From: Candidatus Micrarchaeota archaeon
GTDB taxonomy: Archaea; Micrarchaeota; Micrarchaeia; Norongarragalinales; Norongarragalinaceae
NCBI GenBank assembly: GCA_016207165.1
Contig: JACQQD010000008.1
Location: 112,386 to 176,385, forward strand
Direction of reading: 5' to 3'
Length of the DNA stretch: 64,000 bases
Positions 25,846-60,304 of the stretch are shown piece by piece; position 1 is the stretch's first letter; the number at the start of each line of letters is the position of its first letter. A program made the position numbers and the translations under genes. The notes beneath the pieces were generated by a model that saw only the letters and a program-made list of their open reading frames with translations, ran no database searches and was not told the origin of the DNA.

Positions 25846-25954
25846 GAAACCGTATTGGAGTCCTGGGGTTTCAAAAGGCTGCCGGGTGTTGGGCGATTGA
25901 CGAAGGGTCTACGGGTTTTTATACGCGGATTGTCCAGAAAACGCTTGAACTGAA

Positions 25955-26001: not shown

Positions 26002-26033
26002 GTCTAGCAAACTCCGCCTATTCGTCGTGAAAT
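26000..26033 (+). promoter_or_regulatory. Conserved intergenic motif 1, copy upstream of HMG-CoA synthase. A TTGCTATA box lies ~20 nt before the ATG.
   Basis: Matches the reverse complement of 15691-15725. Confidence 0.5.
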
Positions 26034-26069
26034 TTGCGGGGTTTGCTATACTGGAAGGTTTATTGTTCA

Positions 26070-28279: not shown

Positions 28280-28306
28280 TATGGTTGCGCGAGACGGGGT
28301 TTTGGC

Positions 28307-43685: not shown

Positions 43686-43689
43686 GTTT

Positions 43690-44844: not shown

Positions 44845-45485
44845 GCGTCCAGCCGGCTTTCGATTTGTTCTTTGGAGTGGAATCCTTCGAGTTTTTCGGC
44901 GTTTAAAACCAGGGTGGGGTACCGCGTGACTTGGTGGATTTCTTTTAGGGCGTTGACTGCCGGCATGTTCAAGCTGGAGTCCAGGGCGTAAATCAAGAGT
45001 TCGGGGCGGTCTTTTTTCAGGGGCGGGCCTACCAGGCCTTGTTTGAGGCATTCGGCGCAGTCTTTCGTGTAGAAATACAAGAGGGTCTGCGTCTTGGCTC
45101 CGCATTCCTCTTTGATTTTTTGGGTCAACAGGTAGTCGCGGACTTGTTTGAGGGTGTACTCGCGTTTGAGTTTCAAGACGTTTTCGTCGCTGGGGCCTTG
45201 GCTGTGCTCAAGGGCGTCGATTTTGACGCCGAATGCCGTGGTTTCCAAGTCAAATTCCGAAAGCGTGGATTGGTAGAAGGGGCACAGCGTGGTGGTGGAG
45301 TTGGGGTTGAACAGCAACAGCACTTCCAGTTCTCCGGTGCGGCTTTGCAAAAGCGAGAGCTCCGAGGCCAGCTGGTTGGAGGCGTCCTCTGCAATGAAGG
45401 CGCCGGTGAGGATGCCGACGGCGAACAAAAACGCGGAGATGGCAAACGCCGCGGCGTAGGTTTTCCAGGAAATGCTTCGCATCAA
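44841..45485 (-). CDS. Membrane-anchored thioredoxin-like protein (CAEC)
   Basis: N-terminal TM, then a thioredoxin-fold-like region with CAEC. Confidence 0.45.
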   Translation of the reverse strand: MMRSISWKTYAAAFAISAFLFAVGILTGAFIAEDASNQLASELSLLQSRTGELEVLLLFNPNSTTTLCPFYQSTLSEFDLETTAFGVKIDALEHSQGPSDENVLKLKREYTLKQVRDYLLTQKIKEECGAKTQTLLYFYTKDCAECLKQGLVGPPLKKDRPELLIYALDSSLNMPAVNALKEIHQVTRYPTLVLNAEKLEGFHSKEQIESRLDA

Positions 45486-45529
45486 TGGTTTGAACCCCTT
45501 TTACCGTTTTAAGTGCTTTGGGCAACCGC

Positions 45530-46723
45530 CTACCACTTGAGTTTTTCTCTCCGAAGTTCGCGAAAGGCGGTGACCAGCCAGAAAAACGTGATGAGCGGCG
45601 TGTAGATCAACAGGTACAGCGCCAGGACGGGGGTGGAGAGGCGTTCGCCTTGCATTTGACGGATGCCCAGGTACGCCCACGCGACGGTGGCCGTGAAGAT
45701 CAAAACGCCAAGGACGTGTAGGGGAGTGAGGCCAAGGTAGATGTTTTCCAAGCCGTAGGCGAAGAGTTCCCCGACGGTTCCGCTGAATACGGCGTACAGC
45801 ATGAGCAAGAAGACGATGAATACGGCGAAGATGCTTAAAATCGCCAGGGGCATGACCAGCAAGCCAAAGTCTCCGTACTTGGGGGAGACCAAGTACCAAT
45901 GTTTGATGATGTTTCGGATGCCGCCGCGGTGCCAGCGCACGCGTTGGTTGACCAGGGCGTTGAGGGTTTTTGGCACGCGCGTGTACACTACGGCGTCAAG
46001 GCTGGAGGCGATTTGGTATTGGTGGCCTTGGATGCGGTACGCCATTTCTTGGTCTTCCAAAATGTTGCCTTCGTCGTAGCCGCCCACTTCGTCAAAGACG
46101 TTTCGGCGGAACATGCTGAGCGGCCCTGGGGTGACGGTGACGGAGTGGATGAAGGACTGGAGTTTTCTTGAAAAAACGGTGAGCAGGTACTCGACGCGCT
46201 GGAGTTTTTCCAACACGGTCTTGGGTTGGTACACTTTCATCAGGGGCGTGACGGCCGCGACTTTCGGGTCGGAAAAGTATCCCACCATGTGAAGGAGAGC
46301 GTCTTTTTGAATGAAGGAGTCCGCGTCCAAGGTGGCCACGAGTTCGGTCTTGGTTTTGGACAAGGCGTTGTTCAGGGCCCGGGCTTTGCCCGCGTTTTTC
46401 TGGCGGATCAACGTCACGTTCTTGTGTTTTTCGGCGAACGGCCGTGCAATCATTGGGGTTCTGTCTTTGGAGCCGTCGTCCACCACGATGATGTTCTTGA
46501 CCCCTTTTTTGTAGTCCACGTCCAAGACGGATTGGATGGTTTGCGCGAGGCCGTCTTCTTCGTTGTACGCGGGAATGATGATGGTCAAGGACGGGAGTTT
46601 CTTGGGTGGTTTTGGGGATTCGCGGACGCGTTCGCGGTTTTCCAGGTACACCAAGATAAAAAATACGGTGGCAAACAGCGTCAAAAAAGACAGTCCGTAG
46701 GCCAAAAGCAACCGGATTTCCAT
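45530..46723 (-). CDS. Processive family-2 glycosyltransferase (QxxRW-type)
   Basis: Motifs IIIPAYNEE, VVDDGSKD and QRVRWHRGG. TM helices at both ends. Confidence 0.7.
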   Translation of the reverse strand: MEIRLLLAYGLSFLTLFATVFFILVYLENRERVRESPKPPKKLPSLTIIIPAYNEEDGLAQTIQSVLDVDYKKGVKNIIVVDDGSKDRTPMIARPFAEKHKNVTLIRQKNAGKARALNNALSKTKTELVATLDADSFIQKDALLHMVGYFSDPKVAAVTPLMKVYQPKTVLEKLQRVEYLLTVFSRKLQSFIHSVTVTPGPLSMFRRNVFDEVGGYDEGNILEDQEMAYRIQGHQYQIASSLDAVVYTRVPKTLNALVNQRVRWHRGGIRNIIKHWYLVSPKYGDFGLLVMPLAILSIFAVFIVFLLMLYAVFSGTVGELFAYGLENIYLGLTPLHVLGVLIFTATVAWAYLGIRQMQGERLSTPVLALYLLIYTPLITFFWLVTAFRELRREKLKW

Positions 46724-46748
46724 ATGGATTTTTTTTGTTTTCCTGGCT

Positions 46749-47036
46749 TTAAGAGCCCGCGTGGTGCGCTTTTTCCCAGTGCTTTCCTAGGTATTCGAAC
46801 ATCTCGTGAAAGGTTTCCAGTTCCCGGCGAAACTGGGGGACGTACATTCGCGCGCTTTCGCGTGGGTCGCCTTCCAGTTTTTCGATTTTTTCACCGTGGT
46901 CTCGAATGTATCGTTTGAGTCTTTCTTCCAACTGCGGGTAGTCAACGGTGCCCTCGTCGCTCATGAGCCTGAATCCGATGTGTAGTTCCGGCTTTTTTTC
47001 CTTGACGTATTCCAGGAAACGTTTGATGTGACTCAC
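46749..47036 (-). CDS. Hypothetical small protein
   Basis: 95 aa. 4 nt overlap with the upstream GT2 gene. Confidence 0.3.
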   Translation of the reverse strand: MSHIKRFLEYVKEKKPELHIGFRLMSDEGTVDYPQLEERLKRYIRDHGEKIEKLEGDPRESARMYVPQFRRELETFHEMFEYLGKHWEKAHHAGS

Positions 47037-47740
47037 CGCACGATGGCGTAGCGCTTCGTCTTTTTCCCCAAGAGGAAGTTGACGGTGGTGTGGCCCCAGT
47101 CCAACAACAACCCCATCCAGCCTTCTTTTTGGAGGCGGCGGTTGGATGTGTACGCCGTGTATTGGTTCAAAAGAACGACTCGGCCGAACTTCGAGATGCG
47201 GAGGGACAAGTCTTGGTCTTCGGAGGCGTGCATTTGCTCGTCAAATCCATGCACTTTCCACAAGGTTTTTGCCCGGTAGAACACGCAGTTGCCGGCAATG
47301 ACCGGTTTTCCGAATGCGGTGGAAACGCGGACGATGGCGTTGAGCAACGTAAAGAACAGTTGCGTGTTCCAATCCGTCACGCTCGGCCGGATTTCGCAGC
47401 CCACGCTGACGACGTCGGGCTGCATGTCCAGGATTTCCAGGGCTTCCTCTACGAATTCTTTTTGGGGTTTCGTGTCCGCGTCGCAGAAAAGCAGGACGTC
47501 GCCGTTGGCTTTTTTCGCGCCGGCGTTGCGGCCCGCGGCGATGCTGGCGTTCTTCCAGTCTTTTCCGCGTTCGCGCACCACGTTCGCGTATTTTTTGGCG
47601 ATGGCGCGTGTGGCGTCGGTGCTGTGGCCGTCCGCGACAATGAGTTCCGCATTCTTGGGAGTGACTTTTCGGAGGTGTTTCAGGGTGGCGGCGATGCCTT
47701 GGGCTTCGTTGAGTGTGGGGATGATGACGGAGAGCTTCAT
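47033..47740 (-). CDS. Glycosyltransferase family 2
   Basis: Motifs VIIPTLNE, VADGHSTD and CDADT. Confidence 0.65.
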   Translation of the reverse strand: MKLSVIIPTLNEAQGIAATLKHLRKVTPKNAELIVADGHSTDATRAIAKKYANVVRERGKDWKNASIAAGRNAGAKKANGDVLLFCDADTKPQKEFVEEALEILDMQPDVVSVGCEIRPSVTDWNTQLFFTLLNAIVRVSTAFGKPVIAGNCVFYRAKTLWKVHGFDEQMHASEDQDLSLRISKFGRVVLLNQYTAYTSNRRLQKEGWMGLLLDWGHTTVNFLLGKKTKRYAIVR

Positions 47741-47767
47741 CAGAGCAAAGCACGCCGTTTGGAGTTA

Positions 47768-50110
47768 TTAATCCGCTGGCAGGCGGGTTTTCTCGGTCAT
47801 GGCGCGCAAGCGCTCCAGCATGATTTTCTGTTCGGCGGATGCCACGACTTTGCGGGTCACGTCGATGACGTCGGCGTTGACGGAGACGCTGTCAATGCCG
47901 AAGCGCACCAGGGCTTCCGCGAATTCGGGGTAAACCGAGGGTGCCTGGCCGCAGCAGGAGACGTTCACGCCGAACTTGTGGCAGGATTCAATGACGCGTT
48001 GGATGGACTTGATGACGGCCGGGTCGCGTTCGTCGAAGTCTTCGGCGACCAAGCTGGAGTCGCGGTCCAATCCCAGGGTCAGTTGGGTGAGGTCGTTGGA
48101 GCCGATGCTCATGAAGTCTACGCCCAACTGGCAGAATTCTTCCGCTAAGACCGCCGTGGATGGCACTTCGCACATGATGCCCAATTTGAAGTCCTTGTTC
48201 TGGTGTAAGCCGCTTTCCTCGACCAAGGCCTTGCAGAGCTTGTATTCGTGGAGGGTTCTGACAAAGGGAATCATGAGCCACAAGTTGGTCAACCCGAATT
48301 CCTCGCGGACTTTCTTGATGGCGGCCAGCTCCATGCGGAAGACTTCGGGGTCCTTGATGTAGCGGAAGCAACCGCGGAAACCGATCATGGGGTTTTCTTC
48401 CTTGGGTTCAAACTCTTCACCGCCTTCCAAATTCCGGTATTCGTTGGTCTTGAAGTCCGTGGCGCGGTAAATCACGGGGCGGGGAAAAAATTCGGAGCAG
48501 GCTTTGCGCAAGCCGTTGGCCACGGCGTCAATGAATTCCTGTTGGCGGCCTTCAGCAATCAACTTTCGGGGGTGAACTCCTAAGCCGGCGACCATGAACT
48601 CGGCTCGCAGCAATCCGATGCCGTCAACGTTCTTGGAAGCGACTCGGTCGGCCAGCTCCGGTTCGGCGAGGTTGACGTAGATTTTGGTGCCGGTGACCAG
48701 TGGAGCGCCGGCAGAAACGGAGGCCGCCGCTGGCGCGCTGGATTCCAGTTTGACTTCGCCGTCATAGATGACGCCGCGCTTCGCGTCCACGGTGACTTTT
48801 TGGCCGTCGGAAAGCGTTTGGGTGGCCGTGTTGGTGCCGACGATGCAGGGCACGCCCAGTTCCCGCGAAACGATGGCGGCGTGGCACGTCATGCCGCCTT
48901 CATCGGTGACGATGGCCGCCGCGCGCTTCATGGCGGGCACGTAGTCCGGCGACGTCATTTTGGCGACCAGGATGTCGCCTTTTTGGATTTTGTCGATTTG
49001 CTTGGCGGATTGAAGGATTTTTACCGGTCCAAAGCCGATGCCCGGCGCCGCTCCAAGGCCTTTCAGAAGCACCGTGGCTTTGCTTGCGTCCATTCCTTCA
49101 CTCACCTCTTCTTCCTGGTTTTCCTTGTACGTGGTAATGGGCCGGCTTTGCACGATGAAGGCGTCTCTTCCTTCGATGGCCCACTCGATGTCCTGCGGCT
49201 TTCCGTAGTGGTCCTCGATTTTGCGCCCCAAACCCGCAATGATGGTGATTTCTTCGTCGGAGAGCTTCTGGTTCTCCTGCATTTCCTCGGGCACTTCCTC
49301 GTCGCGCGTCACGGTCCCGACGCGGACGACCATTTGGGTCTGTTTGCGGACGCCTTTCTCGACGATCTTGTTGGAGTTCTTGTCAACGACGTAGTGGTCC
49401 GGGGAAATGGATCCGGATACGATGGCTTCCCCCAATCCGAACCCGGCTTCAATCACGATTTTGGTCCGGTCGTTCGTCATGGGCTCGACGGTGAACATGA
49501 CTCCGGACTTGTCGGATTGCACCATTTTCTGGATGACCACCGCGATGCCGACGTCGACGTGGTCAATGTCTTGGTCTTGGCGGTAGTAGATGGCTCTGGC
49601 TTCAAAAAGCGACGCCCAGCATTTCTTTACGGCGTCCACCACGGCGTCGGCGCCCTTGACGTTCAAAAACGTGGCCTGTTGGCCGGCGAATGACGCCTCT
49701 GGCAAATCCTCGGCGGTGGCGCTGGAGCGGACGGCGACGAGCACCTCGCTTTCGTTGGAGGGGATGAATGTGGCGCCGCACAGCTTGTTGTAGGCCCGAA
49801 CGATTTCGGCGCGGATGTCGGAGGGCACTTGCTTTTCGAGGATGGCGTCCTTGATTTCTTCGCTGACGCTTTGCAGTTTTTTGGAGTCTTCAGGATCCAA
49901 GTTCTCGGTTTTCACGCGCACCAGGGCGTCCAGACTGGAACGGTTCATGAAGTCGTGGTAGGCTTGCGCGGACGTGATGAAGCCGGGAGGCACGGGGAAA
50001 CCGGCTTGCGTCATTTCCCCCAAATTGGCTCCTTTTCCTCCGGCGACGCTCAGGGAGGCCTTGCTTAATTCATTGAACCAGTAAACGACTTGCGTCAAAC
50101 GTTTCCCCAC
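47768..50110 (-). CDS. ppsA: Phosphoenolpyruvate synthase (pyruvate, water dikinase)
   Basis: 780 aa. N-terminal GGKGANLGEM. Phospho-His region GGMTCHAAIVSRELG. PEP-utilising C-domain. Confidence 0.85.
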   Translation of the reverse strand: MGKRLTQVVYWFNELSKASLSVAGGKGANLGEMTQAGFPVPPGFITSAQAYHDFMNRSSLDALVRVKTENLDPEDSKKLQSVSEEIKDAILEKQVPSDIRAEIVRAYNKLCGATFIPSNESEVLVAVRSSATAEDLPEASFAGQQATFLNVKGADAVVDAVKKCWASLFEARAIYYRQDQDIDHVDVGIAVVIQKMVQSDKSGVMFTVEPMTNDRTKIVIEAGFGLGEAIVSGSISPDHYVVDKNSNKIVEKGVRKQTQMVVRVGTVTRDEEVPEEMQENQKLSDEEITIIAGLGRKIEDHYGKPQDIEWAIEGRDAFIVQSRPITTYKENQEEEVSEGMDASKATVLLKGLGAAPGIGFGPVKILQSAKQIDKIQKGDILVAKMTSPDYVPAMKRAAAIVTDEGGMTCHAAIVSRELGVPCIVGTNTATQTLSDGQKVTVDAKRGVIYDGEVKLESSAPAAASVSAGAPLVTGTKIYVNLAEPELADRVASKNVDGIGLLRAEFMVAGLGVHPRKLIAEGRQQEFIDAVANGLRKACSEFFPRPVIYRATDFKTNEYRNLEGGEEFEPKEENPMIGFRGCFRYIKDPEVFRMELAAIKKVREEFGLTNLWLMIPFVRTLHEYKLCKALVEESGLHQNKDFKLGIMCEVPSTAVLAEEFCQLGVDFMSIGSNDLTQLTLGLDRDSSLVAEDFDERDPAVIKSIQRVIESCHKFGVNVSCCGQAPSVYPEFAEALVRFGIDSVSVNADVIDVTRKVVASAEQKIMLERLRAMTEKTRLPAD

Positions 50111-50200
50111 CGGACGCGCCGTGCTTTGGCGCCTGACGGAAAAAGAAATTCGTCAGTTGACGCTTACAAGGGTTTCAACGTTTAAAACGCTTTGGCCGGC

Positions 50201-51205
50201 TTACGGGGTTTTCGGTACCGGCACTTTTTTCCCGGTGGTGGCCGAATCCACGCAGGCCTGGGCAATCGCGATGGCGTTGAGGCCGTCTTGCGCGGTGCAG
50301 AGGGGTTTCTCGTTTCCTTTTGCGGCTTCCAAAAAGTGCTCCAGTTCGGCGCGAAGGGGTTCTTTTTTGGTGAAGTACGGCCGCATTTCCGTCCCGCGTC
50401 CGGCCCGCCACAAAATCTCATCAAAGGTCTTGTACTCGGGTTTCTGGTCGCCTTGAAGCGTGACGGTGAGTTCCTGGGTAATGTAATCCAAGTGAGCGGA
50501 TCCTTTTGTGCCGGTAACGATGAGTTGCCTCGTCTTGATGGGGGTGACGCGGTTGGTTTCCACGGCCGCGTAAAATCCGGGAAATTCCAAAATCGCGGAG
50601 GCCACGTCGTAGGAATCCAAGACGGCTTGATGGACGCCGAACACCGTTTCCGGCTTTTTGCCGGTCAGGTAGCACAATACGTCCATGTCGTGCACGCCTT
50701 GGTCAAAGAAGGCGTGGCCGAGTTTTCGAGGCGACGGCACGCCGAAGCGGTGGGCGGAGGCGTACACGATGTCGCCGATTTGGTGCAGGTGTTTCTTGAG
50801 GGTTTGAACTCCCGGGTTGAAGCGCTCGATGTGGCCCACGCACAAAACGGCTTCGTGTTTTTCGGCCAGGGCTTTCAGCGCCACGCCTTCGGGAATCGAG
50901 GCCGCCAACGGTTTTTCCACGAGGCAGGCGATGCCTTTCTCCAAAAGGATGCCGGCGACTTGGGCGTGAAACGGCGTGGGGACCACGATGCTTGCGGCCT
51001 GCGGTTTTTCCTTTAACGCTTCTTGCAAGGAGTCGTGGACGCGGACTTTGCCGTCCAAGTTCATTTCAGTGAGTTGTTTCTTGGATTCCGCGTTGGGTTC
51101 CACCACGTGCACAAACGCCACGTCGTGCATGGCGACGTAGTTTCGGATGTGGTGCCGTCCCATGGCGCCGGCGCCTACCACTAAGACGTTCATGGGCTGT
51201 TTCAT
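50201..51205 (-). CDS. Gfo/Idh/MocA-family NAD(P)-dependent oxidoreductase
   Basis: Rossmann motif VLVVGAGAMG. Start at 51205 or 51193. Confidence 0.65.
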   Translation of the reverse strand: MKQPMNVLVVGAGAMGRHHIRNYVAMHDVAFVHVVEPNAESKKQLTEMNLDGKVRVHDSLQEALKEKPQAASIVVPTPFHAQVAGILLEKGIACLVEKPLAASIPEGVALKALAEKHEAVLCVGHIERFNPGVQTLKKHLHQIGDIVYASAHRFGVPSPRKLGHAFFDQGVHDMDVLCYLTGKKPETVFGVHQAVLDSYDVASAILEFPGFYAAVETNRVTPIKTRQLIVTGTKGSAHLDYITQELTVTLQGDQKPEYKTFDEILWRAGRGTEMRPYFTKKEPLRAELEHFLEAAKGNEKPLCTAQDGLNAIAIAQACVDSATTGKKVPVPKTP

Positions 51206-51392
51206 GCGACAAACCAAATAAATAGTTGGGTTCCGGAAGCGGGTGCACAACGCACGAGGGGGTGTCCGGCACCCACCCCGGATGTATGTAAAGTATGTTT
51301 TACATTATGTATATAAAGCTTTACGTCGGGTTTTGGGTGTTTCCCTTGGCGAAATCTCTTAAGTTTCCGTTTCCACTTTGAGTGTCCGATTT

Positions 51393-51500
51393 GCGGCTGT
51401 GGTCTAATGGTTTGCTTCCTGGTTTCAAGATTCAAACCGGATATTGGCATGATTCGAGCTTCCCAAGCTCGCTGCGCGGGTTCGATTCCCGCCAGCCGCA
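51393..51500 (+). tRNA. tRNA-Gly(CCC) with a ~36 nt non-canonical intron in the D-arm
   Basis: Acceptor stem GCGGCTG/CAGCCGC with A73. T-arm GCGGG-TTCGATT-CCCGC. Anticodon arm CGAGC-TTCCCAA-GCTCG. 55 nt lie between the acceptor and anticodon stems. A model with a 3 bp D-stem and an intron after position 21 gives a 72 nt mature tRNA. C2:G71 and G3:C70 fit Gly. Confidence 0.5.
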
Positions 51501-51612
51501 TTCAGTCCAGGTCTGTGTGCGCAATTGGTCAGATTGTGCCGTATTGCGCAAGAATATGCAGAATACGGCACTATTTAACCTCAGGCCTGTTTGGCCATTG
51601 ACGAGCGGGTCT
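51490..51612 (+). repeat. att core (CGCCAGCCGCATTCA) plus conserved ~110 nt arm, copy 1
   Basis: About 80% identical to 53779-53897. Confidence 0.7.
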
Positions 51613-51686
51613 TCGTTCAAAATTGGATCAAGTGCATAGCGTTGTTCCCGCGTTTCTCTTGAAAATGACGGCGCGTTTGATATTAT

Positions 51687-52715
51687 TTAATGTTGGGCGG
51701 GTACTTTTTCAACATGCCAGAGTTGCCGTTGAGGGTCAAACCGTGCTCGAAACAAAGACTGCATGACTTCCGCATCCACTCCAAGGGAGTCTAAATGAGG
51801 ACGAAAGTGTTGAATCATCGCTTCTCGCAAGGAAGGATCCATCAGGTGTTCTTTGAGGGAAGCGTGGTTCGCGCCCCATACCATTCCAATGGTTGGTTTT
51901 TTACCGCGCTCTTTGGCGACGGTTTCCGCAACGATCTCTTCCAATTTTTTCGCACCCATCGCATTTCGGAACTCGGATGCGGCCGTTGGAAAGAAGCTTC
52001 CAGAGTACCAAGCTAACGCGCGTCGGGCAATTTCCCTTCGACGGATTTCACCCGGCCAAGAGACGGCATGAAGCAACGCTTGAAACGGAGGCAAAAAGGC
52101 GTAAGAAAAGGCGGCTGCGCCAGCTTTCAAACCTACTTTTTTTCCCAATCCTAAAAATGCCCGACGCGAAAGGGTGGCCGAATCCCTGATTTCTTGAGCT
52201 CTTTTAAGACGCGCTTCAAGCTTTTTGAGTTTATTTGATCGTGATTTTCCTTGTTGGGCTAATTCCGTTTTATGGGCCTGAATTTCGCCCTCGATTAGTT
52301 TTTGTGCGGCTTCTTGTTGACCTCTGGCCTTTTTCTTCTCGAGTATTTCTAGCAGGTCAAGCAAGGCAGATCCGCCTAGTAGCATCCCGATAATTCTTCC
52401 CGGTCCGGGCCTGTATTTGAGCCGAAGGTTCACGTCCTCCCGATTCAAGTCAAAATCCCCTAACCAGACTTCCGCTCCACCTTGAGCCGCTTTGGCCAAA
52501 AGCATCCGCAACTTTCTGTCTCCGGCGTTTAGAGTCGCTTTGCTGTTCATCACCCGTCCAAGGTATTCCGCATCGTCTTTTTTTGTCAACGGATAATCGA
52601 AAAACAGAGCGTCCATGTGCTGCGGATCGAGGTCCGACCAGTCCTCTTGATGGGATTCCAATTCTAGTGCGTAATGCGCCTTAGGTGTTTCAAAGCGGAG
52701 GTATCCCATATGCAA
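51687..52715 (-). CDS. Hypothetical protein (342 aa)
   Basis: No confident motif. Lies in cassette B1. Confidence 0.4.
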   Translation of the reverse strand: MHMGYLRFETPKAHYALELESHQEDWSDLDPQHMDALFFDYPLTKKDDAEYLGRVMNSKATLNAGDRKLRMLLAKAAQGGAEVWLGDFDLNREDVNLRLKYRPGPGRIIGMLLGGSALLDLLEILEKKKARGQQEAAQKLIEGEIQAHKTELAQQGKSRSNKLKKLEARLKRAQEIRDSATLSRRAFLGLGKKVGLKAGAAAFSYAFLPPFQALLHAVSWPGEIRRREIARRALAWYSGSFFPTAASEFRNAMGAKKLEEIVAETVAKERGKKPTIGMVWGANHASLKEHLMDPSLREAMIQHFRPHLDSLGVDAEVMQSLFRARFDPQRQLWHVEKVPAQH

Positions 52716-52805
52716 TCTCTGAACTTCTTTTCTTTAAAACAATTTGACCTCCGCTTTTCGGCCGTCAATAGTCCTTTCGATCCACATTTCAAATGTTTGA
52801 CCTAT

Positions 52806-52905
52806 GTCTTGAAGAACTTCTCATGCGTCTCCTTGAGGCGCGCATAAAGGAAATTCTCAAGCGTAATGGTTCGTCCGTTGTCTGAATCTTCCAGGGCCGA
52901 AAAAT
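52806..52905 (-). pseudogene. 3'-terminal fragment of a Fic-family gene
   Basis: Encodes YFSALEDSDNGRTITLENFLYARLKETHEKFFKT-stop. About 85% nt identity to 54535-54655 (C-terminus of the intact Fic gene). Homology ends abruptly upstream. Confidence 0.6.
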
Positions 52906-52959
52906 AGGTTAATAAGATAGTCTTACCAATAAGACTTTAGCTGAAAATGAGGTGTTCAT

Positions 52960-53241
52960 ATGGCTCGTTCAAAGGACCTTCAAATCACGAAGATGTCGTC
53001 CCGCGGCCAAATCGTCATTCCGGAAGGCATCCGGGACGAACTGGACCTGCACGCCGGATCCACGTTCGTCGTATTCGGAAAAAAGGAAGCGGATGCCATC
53101 ATGCTGAAAAAACTGGAGTTTCCCGAACCGAGCAAAGCCTTTGACGAAATGGCGCAATGGGGAGAAAAACACGCCAAATCGAAAGGGTTGGATACGTCCG
53201 CCAGCAGAATCGTTGAAAACCAGCACAAACGCAGAAAATGA
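52960..53241 (+). CDS. AbrB/SpoVT-type antitoxin
   Basis: KMSSRGQIVIPEGIRDEL looped-hinge-helix motif. 4 nt overlap with the downstream PIN gene. Confidence 0.6.
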   Translation: MARSKDLQITKMSSRGQIVIPEGIRDELDLHAGSTFVVFGKKEADAIMLKKLEFPEPSKAFDEMAQWGEKHAKSKGLDTSASRIVENQHKRRK

Positions 53242-53651
53242 CTTCCCTTCCAAGCGTGGTTTTTGACACGAACGTCCTGGTGTCCGCCATCTTGTCCACG
53301 AAAGGGGCCTCATACGCACTGGTGCGCCTCGCTGCCGAGGGAAAAATCGTCGGCTACACGTCCAAGACGCTGATGGATGAATTCCGGGAGATCATCCAGC
53401 GGGATTACGAAGTCTCGCCGGAGAGGGCCAACCGCATGGTCGACGTGTTCCTGCAGTTCCTGAAAATAGTCGACCCCACCATTCGACTGGACGCCGTCCG
53501 CGAAGATCCGGATGACAACCGTGTTTTGGAATGCGCCGCCATGGCCAACGCGAAATTCGTGGTTTCCTGGGATCCGCACCTCACCAAACTTGGCAGGTTC
53601 GAGGAGATTCAAATCTTGAATCCGGGAAAAATGCTCGGTTTGCTGAAGTAA
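53238..53651 (+). CDS. vapC: VapC-like PIN-domain toxin
   Basis: VVFDTNVLVSAI N-terminus and PIN acidic residues. Confidence 0.65.
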   Translation: MTSLPSVVFDTNVLVSAILSTKGASYALVRLAAEGKIVGYTSKTLMDEFREIIQRDYEVSPERANRMVDVFLQFLKIVDPTIRLDAVREDPDDNRVLECAAMANAKFVVSWDPHLTKLGRFEEIQILNPGKMLGLLK

Positions 53652-53691
53652 ACCGAACGGCATCAGGTCTGTTTCTTTTTAACGTCGTGTT

Positions 53692-53897
53692 GAATTCAAC
53701 ACGATTTTACCAAACAAACCACACCCACCAAGCAGGCCTCTAAGCGCGGCAGCCGCATCCAGAACAAGTCTGAGTTCGCGCCAGCCGCATCCAGTCCAGG
53801 TCTGTGTGCGTTTTTTGCACGATTGTGCACATATGCGCATGATTATGCAGAATTCAGCACTATTTAACCTCAGGCCCGTTTGGCCCTTGACGAGGGT
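53692..53897 (+). repeat. att copy 2: left flank, two degenerate tRNA 3'-end cores, and the conserved arm
   Basis: gcgcggcagccgcatccag equals the tRNA 3' end with the T-loop deleted. A second core, gcgccagccgcatccagtcc, follows. Arm runs 53797-53897. Confidence 0.65.
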
Positions 53898-53922
53898 CAA
53901 ATTGTCCTTTGTCAGGCTTCAT

Positions 53923-54519
53923 TTATTCCTGACTGTTTTTCAAGTTGAACGTTACATTCATTACTCGTTCGGAAAACGCTCGGGCACGAATCGAATCGGA
54001 ATCACTAAGATTCCCAAAACCAAAGACTGAAAATGTCCCTTGCAGTTGGGCATAAAACACAGTTTTATCCAATTGCGCGCCCTTCTGCCGCAGATTCTTC
54101 ACGACAAAATCCAAATTTCCGGGTTCATTTCTAATACGACGGTCTTGATCGGTTAAATCAAACAAAATTGATTTTACGGCCAAGCCAAAGTTTCCGGTTC
54201 CTTTCTTGACACAAAAAAGCGCCATCTTTGTTTTTGAAAGGTTTTGCGATTCCAAGTATTTCTGGATTGAAAAGCCATGATGCAGTAGGCCTCCAGCAAA
54301 AACAAAATCAAACCCGGAAATTGATGGTGTTTCCAATGAAGTCTTAACGACAACCCTCGAATTTATCTTCCGTGCGCCTTGAGCAATAGCCTCAGCCAAT
54401 TGTTTAGCTTTTGAACCATCATAAACCACCAAAACGTTCATGTTTGAGGGTAACCGTCCAAACTTAATTAAACCCACATTTTTCTCAGGAAAATGTGACA
54501 ATATACCGAAGAGTCTCAA
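53923..54519 (-). CDS. Flavodoxin-like fold protein
   Basis: MNVLVVYDGSKAKQLAEAIAQGARK. Lower GC than surroundings. Confidence 0.45.
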   Translation of the reverse strand: MRLFGILSHFPEKNVGLIKFGRLPSNMNVLVVYDGSKAKQLAEAIAQGARKINSRVVVKTSLETPSISGFDFVFAGGLLHHGFSIQKYLESQNLSKTKMALFCVKKGTGNFGLAVKSILFDLTDQDRRIRNEPGNLDFVVKNLRQKGAQLDKTVFYAQLQGTFSVFGFGNLSDSDSIRARAFSERVMNVTFNLKNSQE

Positions 54520-54522
54520 TAA

Positions 54523-55476
54523 TCATTCCAAATATTTGACGTAAATCTTGAAGAACTTTTCATGCGTCTCCTTAAGCCGCGCATAAAGAAAATTCTCCAA
54601 AGTGATGGTTCGACCGTTGTCCGCATCTTCCAGAGCTGAAAAGTAGGACAGCCGCTGCGTTTTGCGGATGATGAGTGGAGGGTAGCCAGCTTGCAACAAC
54701 ATGGCGTTGATGAGGAAGCGACCGACGCGGCCGTTGCCATCTTCGAAAGGATGGATTTGTTCGAAACGGCCGTGAAATTCAGCTGCGAGTTGCAGCGGGT
54801 GCTTTTTGGAGCGGTTTTCCTCAAACCAGACAAATAGCTCGCCCATTTGTTTTGCGACGCCTTCCGGCGGCGTGGTGAGCACTTGCCGGCCGTGGATGTA
54901 ATTGGGCAGTTGCTTGTAGCCCGTAGCGATTCCCATGTCCTTGACGAGAATCGAGTGCATTTTGTGCATGTCCTTTTCGCGGACTTTGAGTTTGCCCCGC
55001 AAAATAAGGTCAATGACTTGCCGGGAATTACGGGTTTCGTAGATTTCGCGCAAGTTTTTGCCCGGAATGGCGACGTTTTCATGAATGACGATGGCAACGT
55101 CCTTGAGAGTCAACGAGTTTCCTTCAATGGCGTTGGATTCGTAGGTGAAGTTAACGGTGAAGCGGTCGAACAAATCGGTTTTTTGGGCATCCGTCATCTT
55201 CGACATCAGTTTGCGGTATTCCAACCGCATGCGTTCCATTTTTTCAGGCGCCGAAAGGTCTCGTAGTTTCAGCGAGGCATAGTGCTTTTTCGCGAAACGA
55301 ACCCGAGCTTCAACCTCTTTTTGTTCAAAATAATCCTCAAGTTCCCGATTGTTTTTGCCGGTTCGGCCTTGGACGCGCTTGGCTATTTTGTGCACCCGAC
55401 CGTCCGGTAAGCGGATGGACTTGACCGCATACAGATAGTCTTTGCCTTTGATGCGCTTTTGAGCGAAATGAGCCAC
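54523..55476 (-). CDS. fic: Fic-family protein (class II-like, putative AMP transferase)
   Basis: HPFEDGNGRVGRFL Fic motif. Upstream TYESNAIEGNSL segment matches the [ST]xxxE[GN] inhibitory motif. Start codon is GTG. Confidence 0.75.
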   Translation of the reverse strand: MAHFAQKRIKGKDYLYAVKSIRLPDGRVHKIAKRVQGRTGKNNRELEDYFEQKEVEARVRFAKKHYASLKLRDLSAPEKMERMRLEYRKLMSKMTDAQKTDLFDRFTVNFTYESNAIEGNSLTLKDVAIVIHENVAIPGKNLREIYETRNSRQVIDLILRGKLKVREKDMHKMHSILVKDMGIATGYKQLPNYIHGRQVLTTPPEGVAKQMGELFVWFEENRSKKHPLQLAAEFHGRFEQIHPFEDGNGRVGRFLINAMLLQAGYPPLIIRKTQRLSYFSALEDADNGRTITLENFLYARLKETHEKFFKIYVKYLE

Positions 55477-55483
55477 GAATTAG

Positions 55484-55526
55484 TTAACCCCACAGATTTA
55501 TTTAAACCTATCTTTTGTGGGGTTAA
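55484..55526 (-). promoter_or_regulatory. Fic promoter: TTTAAATA TATA box inside an 11 bp inverted repeat
   Basis: ttaaccccaca-N21-tgtggggttaa. On the gene strand the spacer reads GGTTTAAATAAATC, ~27-34 nt before the start codon. Confidence 0.5.
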
Positions 55527-55560
55527 AACAAACGTTACGGACTATTTCAATTCATGTGCC

Positions 55561-55665
55561 GAATTCAACGCGATTCAACCAAACAAACAACGCACGCAGC
55601 CAACACTGTAAGCGCGGCAGCCGCATTGAGGACAGGACTCAAGGTGCGCCAGCCGCATTCAACGT
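55561..55665 (+). repeat. att copy 3 (left flank plus cores, no arm)
   Basis: Matches 53692-53797 (gaattcaacRcgatt...taagcgcggcagccgcat...gcgccagccgcattca). Confidence 0.6.
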
Positions 55666-55752
55666 GGCCGCTGCGTGATGGGAAAAAATAAGAAAAAGAG
55701 GCCAAGCGGCCGAAAAGAAATGGATGCTTGACGCGTTGCGCGTCCAACGTCT

Positions 55753-55950
55753 TTAAACTTTCTTGGCGTTCTTGGCGCGTGGGCCGCGTTCGGATTGTTC
55801 CACGTCGTATTCGACTTGGTCGCCGACGGCAAACGCGGTGCCCCCCTGGATGGCCGAGGAGTGCACATACACGTCTTTTCCGTCGTCTCCGGTAATGAAC
55901 CCGAACCCGCGGGCGTCGTTGAACATCTTGACTTTTCCTTTCATACTCAA
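55753..55950 (-). CDS. Cold-shock domain protein (CspA family)
   Basis: MKGKVKMFNDARGFGFI...VYVHSSAI. RNP1/RNP2-like motifs. Confidence 0.7.
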   Translation of the reverse strand: MSMKGKVKMFNDARGFGFITGDDGKDVYVHSSAIQGGTAFAVGDQVEYDVEQSERGPRAKNAKKV

Positions 55951-56085
55951 TCACCTAATTTTTCAAAATCAGAAAACAGGTTTTGCTTTCCAACCCAATT
56001 CTTGGGGTGTTGGTGGTATAAATGGCCGACTTTTGGCTTTGTTTCGGGTTTCCGGCGGGCGGGTAATCAAGAAATCAGTCTTTGG

Positions 56086-56379
56086 CTATGCCGCGACCGC
56101 CAGGGCCAAAAATCCGGCAACCGAGATCACAAAAAACCCTGCTCCGTTTTCCATTCCAAGAATTTTTGCGGTTCCCAGGACCAGTGCCAATGCGGCGAAT
56201 AAAGCCAGTCCAACCTGGAGGGAGGCCAAGCCCGTAACGATGCCCATGGTTGCCGCCAACAGCATGCCGGGCGCCCAAAGAAGTGGGCTTGCCGCCGCGT
56301 CGCCGGCTCCCGCATAGCCGAAGAACAGGCCGAGGGTCAACACGACCCAGACGTTTTGGGTGCTGAACAAGGCGCTCAC
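56086..56379 (-). CDS. Small membrane protein (possible)
   Basis: 97 aa, Ala/Gly/Leu-rich hydrophobic. May be a GC-artefact ORF. Confidence 0.25.
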   Translation of the reverse strand: MSALFSTQNVWVVLTLGLFFGYAGAGDAAASPLLWAPGMLLAATMGIVTGLASLQVGLALFAALALVLGTAKILGMENGAGFFVISVAGFLALAVAA

Positions 56380-57335
56380 AAGCCGTTGGCCTCCGAGTCA
56401 AACACGGCATGCGTTTTTTGGATGTAGCGGCTTGGACCGAACTTCTGCTTGAATTGGTGTAGGGACTCAAACTCGCTGCCGCCGAGGTTGGCCGCATTCA
56501 TGCCTTGGGCGTGGGCGCGGCGCAGGGTTTCAAGGACAATGGTTTCGGAAAAGCCCGGAAACCGGTTGGTGGAAATGTTGCAGTAGAGTCCCACGCTTTG
56601 TTTTCCGGTTCGTTCCGCGAGGCTGAAGCCTTCGGGCTTGCCGTCGAGGTAGAATACGTAAGAGAACACGTTTTTTTCGTCGCAGCGCGTGTAGAGGCTT
56701 TCCATGTAGCGGTGGTGCAAGTCCACGGAGTGAAGGAGGAGGGGGTCTCTTCGGATTTTTTCGTCAAACCGGTTGGAAAAATGTCTTTCCCACCCCGATA
56801 GCACGCGCACGGCGTCTTCGTACATGGACGGATGGTAGGGCAGGGCCACCGCGTTTTTGCGTTTTCGGAAATGCGTCGTGGCGTGCCGCAGGCGCTTGAG
56901 GGCCGGTCCTTTCAACGTGACCAATGCGTCCAAGTCCACGATGGTCTGGGGAAACGTGTCTTCGTCGTAACGGTAGTCGGAGTGCCAGCCTTCGTTTGGT
57001 GCGTAGCTTCGGAAATTGTGGCGTTCCAGGAAGGAAAATTCGTTCTCGGAGAGGTTTTTCACGATCACCGGCTTTCCGCTTTTTCGTTCCAGGGTTTCAG
57101 CCAGTTCCGGCACGCGCCCCAATCCTTTAGGTCCGAGCCACTTCGTGATGACGTACGGGGTCTGGTTGGGGTACCGTGTGGTGTAAAGCACCGCGGATTC
57201 GTTCTCTTGGTGGATATACCCGCCGAAAAACGTGCTTTGCATCACGTAGCTCCACGAATCGCTGTAGTCGCCCCCCGGATATTGCTCCGCCAGTTCATTT
57301 CGGTGGTCCGGCGTCAGTTTATGTTTTTCAGCCAT
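56376..57335 (-). CDS. Hypothetical protein, possibly DUF2156/aminoacyl-phosphatidylglycerol-synthase-C-terminal-like
   Basis: 319 aa. Assignment is weak. Confidence 0.3.
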   Translation of the reverse strand: MAEKHKLTPDHRNELAEQYPGGDYSDSWSYVMQSTFFGGYIHQENESAVLYTTRYPNQTPYVITKWLGPKGLGRVPELAETLERKSGKPVIVKNLSENEFSFLERHNFRSYAPNEGWHSDYRYDEDTFPQTIVDLDALVTLKGPALKRLRHATTHFRKRKNAVALPYHPSMYEDAVRVLSGWERHFSNRFDEKIRRDPLLLHSVDLHHRYMESLYTRCDEKNVFSYVFYLDGKPEGFSLAERTGKQSVGLYCNISTNRFPGFSETIVLETLRRAHAQGMNAANLGGSEFESLHQFKQKFGPSRYIQKTHAVFDSEANGL

Positions 57336-57427
57336 GAAATCCTTATACTTGGCCGAGAATAAGATTTTTTGAACGATTTTTTACCTAAAACGGTAAATTT
57401 ATAACCATTTTTTACCCATTATGCTTC

Positions 57428-57934
57428 ATGCGGAGCAAGAACGTGTTGTCGTTGGAGTACGGCCCGAAAGCGGACTTGGACGAGACGGACTGGAAAATTC
57501 TGAAATTGTTGGAGGAGGACGCGCGCATGAGCATCAGCCGCATGGCGCGGCGGTTGAATCTTTCGCGTGACAAAGTCAAATACCGCTTGAAGCGGTTGGT
57601 CTCCGAGAAGATCGTTCTGTCGTTCATGGTCATGACGAACCTGCCGAAACTGGGCTACACGGTGTGGGGCTACATGCACGTTCGTTTTGCCAATCTTACG
57701 CGCAAGCGCGAGCAGGACTTCATCAACCACGTGCGCAGCCACCCGAACATCTTGTTCGCGCATTCGACGCTGGGGGCTTGGGATTTCGGGGTGGAGTTCT
57801 TCGCCAAGGACCCCGGGCATTTTTTCCAACTGCAGAAAGACTTGAAGGAAACGTTTTCCGACATCATCAAGGATGCGGAAACCGGTTCGTTTGTCGACGT
57901 GTACAAGACGTTGTACGTGCCGCCGAGGCCGTAA
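57428..57934 (+). CDS. lrp: Lrp/AsnC-family transcriptional regulator
   Basis: Motifs DWKILKLLEEDARMSISRMARRLNLS (HTH) followed by a RAM domain. Confidence 0.7.
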   Translation: MRSKNVLSLEYGPKADLDETDWKILKLLEEDARMSISRMARRLNLSRDKVKYRLKRLVSEKIVLSFMVMTNLPKLGYTVWGYMHVRFANLTRKREQDFINHVRSHPNILFAHSTLGAWDFGVEFFAKDPGHFFQLQKDLKETFSDIIKDAETGSFVDVYKTLYVPPRP

Positions 57935-57943
57935 TCGTCTTTA

Positions 57944-59281
57944 ATGGGTTTGACTCCAGAGCTTCTGGATATGGCCCCTCTTCCTTTTTCAATTCGAAAA
58001 TTGACTGCGCAGGAGCGTGCACGTCACGAGGAATTCTACCGTTACATGGCGGAAAACCATCCTGACGTGCATGAGGCGCTCATTGAGGGCAAGCGTCCTC
58101 GAATTCCTCCGTACGTCTTGAAGCTCAGTTTTCCGCGCCTTGCTGGCAAACTTAGGGAGTTGCACGCGTTGAATCAGGAACGAGGTACTGGTCTTCAAAT
58201 TGAGGAGCTTGGAAGCTACCTGAATTTCGGTCGGGACAAATGGGAGGCCTTACTGGAACGGCGTTCTCCTTCAAGCGTTTCAAAACCCGGCGAGGTGCCT
58301 GCTGAAGCCACTGGTTCGTCGGGTAACCGAAAGGTCGATTCGCCTCCTGCTCCGGCTTCTCAGAGCCAAAAATCGACGGGTTCTTTACCGGCCGGCGCCG
58401 CCCGTCGGAAAACCCAGACGCCGCCTCCCGCCCAAACCAGTTCCGTCAAGCATCAGTCTGCCGCGCAACAAGTCAAACCAAAGCCGGCTCTTCGGGCGCC
58501 TTCGCGTCCCGCGCCCAAGGAAACGACGCCGGAAGAGGCGTTGGCGCATTTGGAGCAATCCCTGTCTTTGTGGGCCGCGGCGGGTCTGGCGTCCACGCAT
58601 GGGCACAAGGACTTGTCGGATTTGGAGATTGAGGGCCGGGTGGCGGACTTGGTGGCGGATAAAATGGATGCCACGGCGCGCGTTCTTTCTTCTCCCAAAC
58701 TGGTTTCGAGTTTGGCGCGGCGCCTGGAAAAAAGCAGGCTCAAGCCGAGGGAAGTCCTGTATTTTTCAAACCAGGTGCGAAACGCGGTGGAACGGTGGCA
58801 GAGCCAGAGGGCCGGGGAATCTTTTGCCGCGGCAAAGCCTTCCAAGAGGACTTTGAGGGATTCCCTGACTTCGTTTTCCGCGTTGTTGGCGGATCACCGG
58901 AGGAAAATGAAGGATTCATTTCTGCGCTTGAACCGGGATCCGGCCACTTCCGTTGGACAGCTTGAGACGCGTGATTTGGGTGTCTCGATTTCTCATCTTG
59001 CCGAAGACGAGAAACTTCAAGAGGCGTTTCGTGCGGTTCTGAAAAAAGCCTTTGAGGGTTCTTCAACCAGCGGAAGCTTTCTTCTTCGAAAGCACCCCGC
59101 TCTTGTAGACTCCATGAACGCGTCTGGCGGCGACCATTTTTTCAATCTGGTTCACGTCAACGACGCCTTGGTCCAGGAGTTGGGGCATGAACTAACGCGG
59201 TCTGGAGTGTCGGCGGAATCGTTTGACGCGTTTCAGAAAAAACTGTATGCCCGTTACAAGCTGTTTGGCTTGGTCTCTTAG
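57944..59281 (+). CDS. Hypothetical protein with disordered Pro/Ser/Ala-rich centre
   Basis: 445 aa. Confidence 0.4.
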   Translation: MGLTPELLDMAPLPFSIRKLTAQERARHEEFYRYMAENHPDVHEALIEGKRPRIPPYVLKLSFPRLAGKLRELHALNQERGTGLQIEELGSYLNFGRDKWEALLERRSPSSVSKPGEVPAEATGSSGNRKVDSPPAPASQSQKSTGSLPAGAARRKTQTPPPAQTSSVKHQSAAQQVKPKPALRAPSRPAPKETTPEEALAHLEQSLSLWAAAGLASTHGHKDLSDLEIEGRVADLVADKMDATARVLSSPKLVSSLARRLEKSRLKPREVLYFSNQVRNAVERWQSQRAGESFAAAKPSKRTLRDSLTSFSALLADHRRKMKDSFLRLNRDPATSVGQLETRDLGVSISHLAEDEKLQEAFRAVLKKAFEGSSTSGSFLLRKHPALVDSMNASGGDHFFNLVHVNDALVQELGHELTRSGVSAESFDAFQKKLYARYKLFGLVS

Positions 59282-59321
59282 TAGGGAAACTTTGAATAAC
59301 GGGGGCTTTCCTTTTTTTCCC

Positions 59322-59678
59322 ATGGCGGGTTGGCGACTCAAGTTTCATGAATTGGATGGGCGTGGGCAAGACTGGCACGCCCGCTTTTATGAGCAGCTTC
59401 TGCGGCAAGATCCCGAAGCGCATGCCGCTTTGGTCGGACCTCTGAAACCCGTTTTGTCATATCAACTCACTCAGGGCAATGTTTCCAAGGCGGTGGGCTA
59501 TGCCGTGACGCTCCATCGGCTCAACGAAGCGCTTGGTACCGCGGTGCGTTTGGAGGACATGCAATCCCACATCAGCACGGGTTCCAGCCGGTTCATCCCT
59601 CAATTTGAAATGAAGTCCGGGGTAATGGTTCCGGAAGAAATCCGGGTAAAACTAAAAATTGCGCCCCGCCGGCAATAG
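59322..59678 (+). CDS. Hypothetical small protein
   Basis: Internal start MAGWRLKFHE. Confidence 0.25.
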   Translation: MAGWRLKFHELDGRGQDWHARFYEQLLRQDPEAHAALVGPLKPVLSYQLTQGNVSKAVGYAVTLHRLNEALGTAVRLEDMQSHISTGSSRFIPQFEMKSGVMVPEEIRVKLKIAPRRQ

Positions 59679-59692
59679 CTGTTCAGCGGATT

Positions 59693-60304
59693 TCATTTTT
59701 TTTCCGGCTTGGTGAGTTCCGCGAGAAAGTAGCCGGTGTGCACGTGGTCGATGAATTCTTTTCCCATGTGTTCTTCCAGGATGCGTCGGTGGTCCGGTGG
59801 AGGAATGACGAGTCCCGTTTCGTGAAACGTTTCTGGGGCGTGGCTGTCCTTGGTCAACAAATTCATGGCCAGCTGGTTTTCTTTGGCCAACTTTTCCAGG
59901 AATTCGGGTGGCGCGGCGTAGGGCATTAGGGTGTGGCCGACGAGGATGCGGCCGCCGGGTTTAAGCCATTTCGCGGCCAACGCGATAATTTGTTGGGCTC
60001 GCCTTTTGATGTTGGGTTGGTTTAACACGTTGTGGATGTGGATTTCGTCGGCCCGTCCTTCCGGAAAATGGGTTTCTTGCGCGGTTTTCGGGACCACCAG
60101 GACGTGTTGGCGGATGGATTCGAATGCTTTTTTCATTTCTTCGATTAATTCATATTGGTCCGGGTCGGGTTCGATGCAGACGTGGAGTTCGCCGGCTTTA
60201 ATGACGCGGCCTTCTCGTATGCCGGGGAAACGGCTTCCGGGACCGATGTGGACGATGACGGCGCCGGGGTGTTCGCGGATGCGTTGGAGTTGTTCTGGGT
60301 TCAT
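59693..60304 (-). CDS. Hypothetical protein, SAM-methyltransferase-like motif LKPGGRILVGHT. Paralog of 61874..62446.
   Basis: Shares ELHVCIEPD/ALHVCVEQR and LKPGG.LVLVG.T with the second copy. Confidence 0.35.
   Translation of the reverse strand: MNPEQLQRIREHPGAVIVHIGPGSRFPGIREGRVIKAGELHVCIEPDPDQYELIEEMKKAFESIRQHVLVVPKTAQETHFPEGRADEIHIHNVLNQPNIKRRAQQIIALAAKWLKPGGRILVGHTLMPYAAPPEFLEKLAKENQLAMNLLTKDSHAPETFHETGLVIPPPDHRRILEEHMGKEFIDHVHTGYFLAELTKPEKK

Follow-up and report, generated by a model that had tools for sequence, protein, structure and literature searches.

Integration of several mobile genetic elements (MGE) in tandem at one site, integrated MGE without an integrase and exchange of modules between MGE residing side by side have all been described in archaea (PMC8371274, PMC6563490). 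In the arrays formed with SSV-, pNOB8-, pT26-2- and SNJ2-type integrases, as well as among the cryptic integrated elements (CIE) of thaumarchaea, the units are flanked by repeats of a tRNA 3' end, the tRNA gene is regenerated, related elements re-use the same site and exchange modules, and some units lack an integrase (PMC8371274, PMC6563490); a thaumarchaeal CIE of 2.6 kb, the smallest one cited, does encode an integrase (PMC6563490). In bacteria, elements that are flanked by attachment (att) sites but carry no genes for integration or transfer are known as cis-mobilizable elements (CIME) and can be mobilized if a relative equipped with an integrase inserts next to them; in Streptococcus and other bacteria, such attL/attR-flanked units lie in tandem at tRNA 3' ends (PMC5704250). 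Similarly, the ssrA gene of Dehalococcoides is followed by tandem islands with ~20-bp copies of the gene's 3' end as boundaries, and some of these islands are devoid of integration modules and have been proposed to be CIME (PMC3146451). Here, we describe a comparable locus in a stretch of 64,000 nucleotides (nt) from a Candidatus Micrarchaeota archaeon, a member of the DPANN archaea (GenBank assembly GCA_016207165.1, contig JACQQD010000008.1, positions 112,386 to 176,385 of the forward strand; hereafter the window, to which all coordinates refer unless stated otherwise), in which a tRNA-Gly(CCC) gene is followed by two related cassettes. We consider it likely that this is a hotspot at a tRNA gene with two tandem mini-islands lacking a recombinase, which would have been inserted by site-specific recombination at a 15-bp core and would later have exchanged modules and decayed.

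The locus represents a known kind of structure, albeit a somewhat unusual one, with its tiny units, a composite site containing a palindromic pseudo-core at 32-nt phasing and a DPANN host. In contrast to the archaeal tRNA arrays, the units in the window measure only ~2 kb, both lack an integrase, no int(N)/int(C) parts are present, the host belongs to DPANN and the arms flanking the core match no described element. The structure of CIME is reproduced, in that each cassette has a core and arms at both ends and no recombinase; CIME, however, are bacterial, larger and usually derived from integrative and conjugative or integrative and mobilizable elements, whereas no helper is known for the units in the window. 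The Dehalococcoides islands likewise lie several in tandem 3' of a small-RNA gene and display extra conserved nucleotides around the repeat, but they are 10-30 kb long, mostly carry a serine-recombinase module, target the tmRNA gene and reside in bacterial hosts (PMC3146451). Because these islands employ a serine recombinase, we leave the class of the recombinase that may have acted in the window open.

The tRNA-Gly(CCC) gene, which would act as attB of the islands, is intact at the tRNA-proximal junction. Its acceptor, anticodon and T arms pair in the fold prediction, the anticodon loop reads UUCCCAA, corresponding to Gly(CCC), and the D-loop holds a 38-nt insertion (~51412-51449), a non-canonical intron; ARAGORN in bacterial mode did not call the gene, which was recovered with Rfam. 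The core, CGCCAGCCGCATYCA, consists of the final 11 nt of the tRNA gene plus 4 nt, and the tRNA is therefore kept intact on integration. Three exact copies of these 15 nt, in direct orientation, lie at the bounds of the islands (O1 to O3 in Table 1), as an earlier note on this DNA had recognized, and degenerate copies, also pointed out there, occur 32 nt 5' of the second and third (at 53747 and 55615). Allowing up to two mismatches, eight matches to the core were observed against 0.49 expected, and none of 100 shuffled sequences reached eight. The position of the intron differs in the tRNA-Gly(CCC) gene of a groundwater Micrarchaeota metagenome-assembled genome (MAG), denoted L013 (2248-2367), in which an insertion of ~49 nt follows the anticodon loop; in both genes, the 3'-terminal att core is uninterrupted.

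The sequences flanking the three cores are conserved in a modular fashion. [quoted passage not shown] The right arm, given there as a segment of ~110 nt, spans ~102 nt common to sites 1 and 2 (51486-51605 versus 53775-53894, 85% identity over 121 nt including the core), and a 29-nt block of it occurs in only two places in the window, that is, at these same two sites. The shared left flank of sites 2 and 3 proved to be real but longer than the ~50 nt assigned to it, extending over ~95 nt (~76% identity). This left arm ends in the pseudo-core O* (GCGGCAGCCGCAT), the first 11 nt of which form a perfect palindrome, followed by a 20-nt spacer and the true core. Across the four available copies of O* (sites 2 and 3, L013 and a second MAG, L026), 51 of 52 positions are identical, as opposed to 5 invariant columns out of 20 in the spacer.

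The left and right arms are otherwise unrelated, yet they have in common a motif, M (GTGYYGWATT), which matches exactly six times across the 64 kb where 1.09 matches are expected, and all six lie inside the arms, although M was defined after the sequences had been seen and copies related by homology do not count as independent. Two of the six form a palindromic pair outermost in the first left arm, one lies in the second left arm, two make up an inverted pair in the first right arm and one lies in the second; the left arm of L026 has the same palindromic pair. Sharing of M between both arms is what arm-type or accessory-protein sites of an attP would be expected to show and thus lends support to the suggestion of the earlier note that the right arm is bound by a recombinase. 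The att site of the element would comprise, from left to right, the palindromic M pair, ~40 nt, O*, 20 nt, the core, M, 16 nt, the inverted M and a 38-nt block.

Table 1. Features of the tRNA-Gly(CCC) locus, in window coordinates.
Feature	Position	Strand	Remarks
tRNA-Gly(CCC) gene	51393..51500	+	Rfam RF00005, 52.4 bits, model positions 1-71, full length
Core O1, CGCCAGCCGCATTCA	51490..51504	+	exact match and alignment; tRNA 3' end + 4 nt; attL-type junction together with right arm
Right arm P'1	51505..51606	+	85% identity to 53794-53895; inverted M pair at 51536-51545 (+) and 51562-51571 (-); 38-nt conserved block
Orphan 340-aa ORF (NCBI hypothetical HY572_04545)	51687..52709	-	cargo of cassette 1; no assigned family
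Fic 3'-end pseudogene	52785..52908	-	last ~36 codons with premature stop; translation YFSALEDSDNGRTITLENFLYARLKETHEKFFKT*; 85% nucleotide identity to 54524-54647
AbrB/MazE-type antitoxin gene, 93 aa	52960..53241	+	TIGR01439, 36.9 bits, above cut-off; Pfam MazE_antitoxin, 24.4 bits
PIN_3 toxin gene, 137 aa	53238..53651	+	PF13470, 7e-22; TIGR00305, 55.6 bits
Left arm P1	53685..53778	+	palindrome GTGTTGAATTCAACAC (two M, 53687-53702); ACCAAACAAAC tract; O* GCGGCAGCCGCAT at 53746-53758; 20-nt spacer
Core O2, CGCCAGCCGCATCCA	53779..53793	+	with both arms, complete attP-like P-O-P' junction between the cassettes
Right arm P'2	53794..53895	+	M at 53851-53860, minus strand; homologous to P'1
172-aa flavodoxin-fold protein gene	53923..54441	-	cargo of cassette 2; GC minimum 0.41
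Intact Fic gene, 317 aa	54523..55476	-	PF02661, 2.4e-18; HPFEDGNGR motif
Putative Fic promoter	55483-55527		palindrome-flanked TATA region; palindrome kept in L024, L025 and L026
Left arm P2	55554..55646	+	M at 55556-55565; O* at 55614-55626, then 20-nt spacer; homologue upstream of Fic in L026
Core O3, CGCCAGCCGCATTCA	55647..55661	+	exact match; attR-type junction; chromosomal DNA common to relatives to the right

Given that the source is a MAG, in which repeats can be mis-assembled, the possibility that the repeats are an artefact or chance similarities deserves attention. We assign it a negligible probability: no shuffled sequence attains the observed number of cores, and the arms are at least 100 nt long and 76-85% alike rather than identical. 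Furthermore, two Logan contigs from other sequencing runs cover positions 51551-52998 (100%) and 55403-56713 (99.9%) of the window and thereby independently reproduce the interior of cassette 1 and the junction at site 3 (L020), the joins at sites 1 and 2 lying outside these contigs. Since the copies diverge and have in part been re-assembled independently, duplication during assembly, against which the earlier note had warned, appears very unlikely.

Comparison with related genomes shows that the interval between the tRNA gene and the cold-shock gene to the right of core O3 (55753-55944, minus strand) is variable, because L013 lacks both cassettes and another relative, L021, has different DNA in their place. 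L013, the sole relative retrieved with the tRNA 3' end from a scan of the GTDB species representatives, agrees with the window in having this tRNA-Gly(CCC), the cold-shock gene (85% nucleotide identity) and FEN1 (74%). In L013, 19 nt separate the tRNA core from O*, beyond which lie the 20-nt spacer, in a homologous version, and a core with a single mismatch (O'); two unannotated open reading frames (ORFs) of 185 and 75 amino acids (aa) with no family match come next, and then the cold-shock gene. Our first impression that the 185-aa ORF encodes a nucleotidyltransferase received no support from the profile libraries. The three core-like repeats of L013 (tRNA end, O* and O'; positions 2357-2431 of that locus), with start-to-start spacings of 31 and 32 nt, resemble an 'empty' mini-array, and the 63 nt between the cores can be read as the vestige that a deletion left of a member of the same family. 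The cold-shock protein of L021 is 92% identical to that of the window, and the homology begins at 55668, that is, 7 nt to the right of core O3, with different DNA before it. Conservation of the locus across relatives, which the earlier note regarded as an argument to the contrary, was consequently not found.

L026, a 2.6-kb contig from another MAG, encodes a Fic protein 85% identical to that of the second cassette; its homology to the window covers the Fic gene with the palindrome in the promoter and the left arm in full as far as and including O*, beyond which lie HicAB genes and no cold-shock gene; further att-like repeats were not found in L026, and Rfam called no tRNA in this locus. Some 220 nt beyond the pseudo-core of L026, just before HicB, there is a T-arm-like fragment, GGTTCAAATCC, with partial stems (456-490, minus strand as displayed), which might represent the relocated 3' part of another tRNA or else have arisen by chance. 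More distant relatives of the Fic protein (65-72% identical) are encoded singly among housekeeping genes, with no arms, tRNAs or integrases nearby (L024, L025, L028-L032). Of the loci reached through the cold-shock protein, L021 was informative, whereas L022 and L023 have a non-syntenic context; within the loci examined from further archaea whose tRNA 3' end is identical, no extra cores were present.

The two cassettes, 2289 and 1868 nt from core to core and thus close to the ~2.2 and ~1.8 kb estimated in the earlier note, turned out to be homologous, an aspect that had gone unnoticed there, as had the 3' pseudogene of Fic. Self-comparison of positions 51200-55900 yields three off-diagonal segments only, all collinear: the core with the right arm, a 124-nt piece that is 85% identical to the 3' end of the Fic gene of cassette 2, and the left arm with the core. 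On account of these three collinear segments, including the Fic 3' end, both cassettes can be recognized as mosaic derivatives of one unit with the order right arm - variable gene - Fic - left arm. The variable gene corresponds to the orphan 340-aa ORF in cassette 1 and to the 172-aa flavodoxin-fold gene in cassette 2, and in cassette 1 an AbrB/PIN_3 pair is found in place of the 5' part of Fic and its promoter. Remnant and cassette-2 Fic differ mostly at third codon positions (15 of 20 differences), which argues, at the sequence level, that the truncated gene evolved as a functional one before its truncation. The arm divergence of 15-24% and the conversion of one Fic copy into a pseudogene point to age of the units.

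These comparisons also bear on the possibility that the two cassettes arose in place, by unequal crossing-over between the 15-nt repeats of a single island, followed by divergence and exchange of cargo. Such an event would be consistent with the collinearity and similar divergence (76-85%) of the three shared segments, and unequal exchange between attL and attR would yield exactly the P-O-P' junction seen in the middle. Nevertheless, we regard it as unlikely, because over 123 nt of the Fic 3' end the remnant is 83.7% identical to its neighbour and equally 83.7% identical to the Fic gene of L026 (85.4% for the third pair), with mostly synonymous differences, and the left arms of site 2, site 3 and L026 are likewise similarly distant from one another (77%, 73% and 69% pairwise identity). 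The cassettes in the window being as far apart from each other as from the copy in L026 speaks against a recent duplication in situ and for two lineages that arrived separately. A duplication would have to predate the split from the L026 lineage, yet L013, the closer relative, has neither copy; moreover, a repeat of 15 nt is a poor substrate for homologous recombination. Accordingly, the remnant, the cassette-2 Fic and the Fic of L026 would seem to be separate lineages of one element family represented in at least two genomes.

The reading we favour is thus one of site-specific integration. The interval between the tRNA-Gly(CCC) gene and the cold-shock gene would be an integration hotspot at which each island was joined to the chromosome by recombination within the 15-bp core. 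We infer that a site-specific recombinase made these junctions and that the second island entered the att site of the resident one, an accretion that would leave a complete P-O-P' site between the islands. The ancestral unit would already have been small, with the right arm - variable gene - Fic - left arm order, and the modules would have been exchanged later, when the AbrB/PIN_3 pair took the place of the 5' part of Fic in cassette 1. Today, the islands may be fixed relics or else non-autonomous, CIME-like or satellite units, any present-day mobility of which would depend on a recombinase supplied by a related element or the host. Our preferred view is that they represent CIME-like relics, or satellites, of a family of elements that targets tRNA genes.

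The statement of the earlier note that no integrase is encoded was borne out. Neither the ORFs of the islands nor the 64-kb window contain a recombinase, integrase, resolvase or transposase recognizable with Pfam, NCBIfam, PADLOC or PHROGs, the remainder of the first half of the window having been judged by eye from translations (mevalonate-pathway enzymes, surface proteins and toxin-antitoxin modules); in this respect, the islands depart from integrated elements that encode their own integrase. A partitioned integrase of the SSV type (class I), with int(N) and int(C) parts, was considered and rejected, because the ORFs that cross the cores are only 62-85 aa long, including one of 73 aa at the P-O-P' site 2, and contain no integrase domain. 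Searches of IMG/VR gave no match to the right-arm block, the first right-arm block, the double core, the tRNA end, the left-arm motif or a Fic relative, and the composite site was unmatched among INPHARED phages and PLSDB plasmids.

Several points weigh against the integration scenario. The right arm has no match beyond the window in the viral, phage and plasmid collections; the double core has two chance matches only in JGI metagenomes, both inside GC-rich bacterial genes; and neither an integrase-bearing element with these arms nor a circular form was present in the collections searched (viral, phage, plasmid, GTDB representatives and JGI). L013 is not a clean empty site, for it retains the pseudo-core and a core, and a clean tRNA-O-B' empty site was found in none of the relatives examined; the related loci available number three. 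The post hoc definition of M, noted above, counts in the same direction. Finally, lack of detectable homology makes it formally possible that the orphan 340-aa ORF encodes an unrecognized recombinase, and nothing suggests that it does.

An alternative with a more dynamic outlook is that the cassettes are not relics but miniature, integrase-less units still being exchanged at the tRNA-anchored site by a recombinase from the host (e.g., XerA-like) or from a helper, which would make them functional counterparts of integron cassettes, CIME or Xer-dependent modules. Both units are small and have common ends with different cargo; the arms carry conserved motifs, O* being better conserved than the spacer and M being confined to the arms; in L026, a different genome, Fic is again accompanied by the left arm; in L013, three cores at 31-32-nt spacing are followed by a different cassette; and the toxin-antitoxin and defence cargo is reminiscent of chromosomal integrons. 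By contrast, neither a recombinase from a helper nor a circular junction nor polymorphism in the population was observed, the divergence of the arms and the Fic pseudogene indicate age and decay, the distant Fic relatives stand alone among housekeeping genes without tRNAs or arms, and the 'family' rests on two to three loci. We therefore hold continuing exchange to be rather improbable. Equally doubtful is the broader proposition that the units of the window, the 63-nt vestige of L013 and the Fic gene with its left arm in L026 belong to an undescribed family of ~2-kb recombinase-less DPANN cassettes shuffled in trans at a tRNA hotspot; the site of such a family may consist of the palindromic M pair, O* (GCGGCRGCCGC), the 20-nt spacer, the core formed by the tRNA 3' end and the inverted M pair.

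The resemblance to integrons invites a further comparison. Integron cassettes and clusters of attC sites lacking integron-integrase (CALIN) are likewise arrays of small, promoter-poor units with toxin-antitoxin or defence cargo and a recombinase acting in trans, and reports of integrons exist for archaea, DPANN among them (PMC9668308). That the locus is such an array, with attC sites resembling the tRNA end by coincidence, is nonetheless highly improbable. As single-stranded DNA, the composite site folds into several short local hairpins and not into one attC-like hairpin of the whole site, and it has no RNA or attC-like match in Rfam even at E<=5. Genes are present on either strand, Fic possesses a conserved promoter of its own with a TATA region and palindrome, IntI was not found in the window, and the repeat is a tRNA 3' end in direct orientation. 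We rejected the integron or CALIN interpretation for want of an attC hairpin with R''/L'' and L'/R' boxes, of co-oriented promoterless cassettes and of IntI. Other small, integrase-less modules that often carry toxin-antitoxin genes and form arrays through the host recombinase are the integrative mobile elements exploiting Xer (IMEX) and the pdif modules of Acinetobacter, which use dif-like XerC/D sites; at the window, by contrast, neither a dif-like site nor a Xer gene was seen.

The gene content of the islands is in keeping with the defence or addiction functions attributed to them in the earlier note. The intact Fic protein of cassette 2 contains HPFEDGNGR, conforming to the Fic/DOC signature HPFx[D/E]GN[G/K]R, and among PADLOC families matches the candidate defence family PDC-S04 (1.4e-41) and SoFic (5.7e-25). 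Just 5' of its start, a 12-bp inverted repeat (GTTAACCCCACA/TGTGGGGTTAA(A)) brackets a TATA-like TTTATTTAAA; this repeat is kept in the Fic genes of other DPANN contigs, although the remaining flanks differ, and probably serves as an operator through which a leaderless Fic transcript is autoregulated. The 172-aa protein, for which 11 representatives were found among 1.84e9 proteins, has a flavodoxin fold according to its AlphaFold2 model (pLDDT 83), which matches flavodoxins in Foldseek searches of the PDB (5wid and 4heq; E 3e-7, TM 0.6-0.75). It was dismissed as a conserved partner of Fic, being unrelated to the ORF that follows Fic in L025. Exact-protein look-ups of the PIN and Fic proteins of the window returned no record. 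In cassette 1, the antitoxin gene lies directly 5' of the PIN gene with an overlap of 4 nt, as predicted for a type II toxin-antitoxin module. The orphan 340-aa ORF, on the other hand, matches only itself among 5.8e9 proteins and no Pfam, NCBIfam, PADLOC or PHROGs family, and its AlphaFold2 model (pLDDT 42) is unusable. At residues ~180-205, after a long predicted helix, there is an internal twin-arginine-like stretch, SRRAFLGLGKKVGLKAGAAAF, and the ORF may represent a fusion or contain an internal start. The GC content is depressed in both cassettes, at 0.498 in the first and 0.461 in the second (with its minimum of 0.41 over the 172-aa gene), compared with 0.548-0.578 in the flanks, which bears out the lower GC that the earlier note had perceived in the second interval.

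Beyond the att-bounded part, the whole neighbourhood is rearranged relative to L013. The window has ~9.6 kb of extra DNA between the NMD3 gene and the tRNA gene (41892-51250), encoding DUF2070, three glycosyltransferases, phosphoenolpyruvate synthase and a Gfo/Idh/MocA oxidoreductase, and ~4.3 kb between the cold-shock gene and FEN1 (55960-60300). Further modules of toxin-antitoxin or defence type lie outside the islands (708-1229, 12906-14214, 17192-17491 and 23118-23795); they include an AbiEii toxin (12906-13655; Pfam 5.6e-31) and, as read from translations only, its AbiEi-like neighbour, a small nucleotidyltransferase-like ORF, a VapC/PIN and antitoxin pair and a PIN-like ORF. Two large, secreted-looking ORFs with no family match (2914-7189) precede an 1860-aa ORF with C-terminal PP2C phosphatase and FHA domains (7193-12775). 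A compact mevalonate-pathway cluster, again read from translations only, occupies 18152-28717 and comprises type 2 isopentenyl diphosphate isomerase, kinases, diphosphomevalonate decarboxylase, 3-hydroxy-3-methylglutaryl-CoA reductase and synthase, thiolase and a DUF35-like protein.

The genomes of DPANN archaea are tiny, and there is little documentation of how defence and toxin genes are gained and exchanged in this group. The locus described here is a clean, annotated case of a hotspot anchored at a tRNA gene in Micrarchaeota, for which the att boundaries are exact and candidate motifs for protein binding are at hand. If no cognate recombinase exists, it would be an ordinary record of decaying integrated elements; if one is found, the ~210-bp site at 53685-53895 would offer a ready substrate for the study of trans-mobilization in an uncultivated lineage. 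Should the cassettes still be exchanged, they would constitute an archaeal, tRNA-based functional analogue of integron cassettes and CIME that distributes toxin and defence genes. Under the integration scenario that we favour, the locus suggests that very small, integrase-less units can persist in tandem at a tRNA hotspot.

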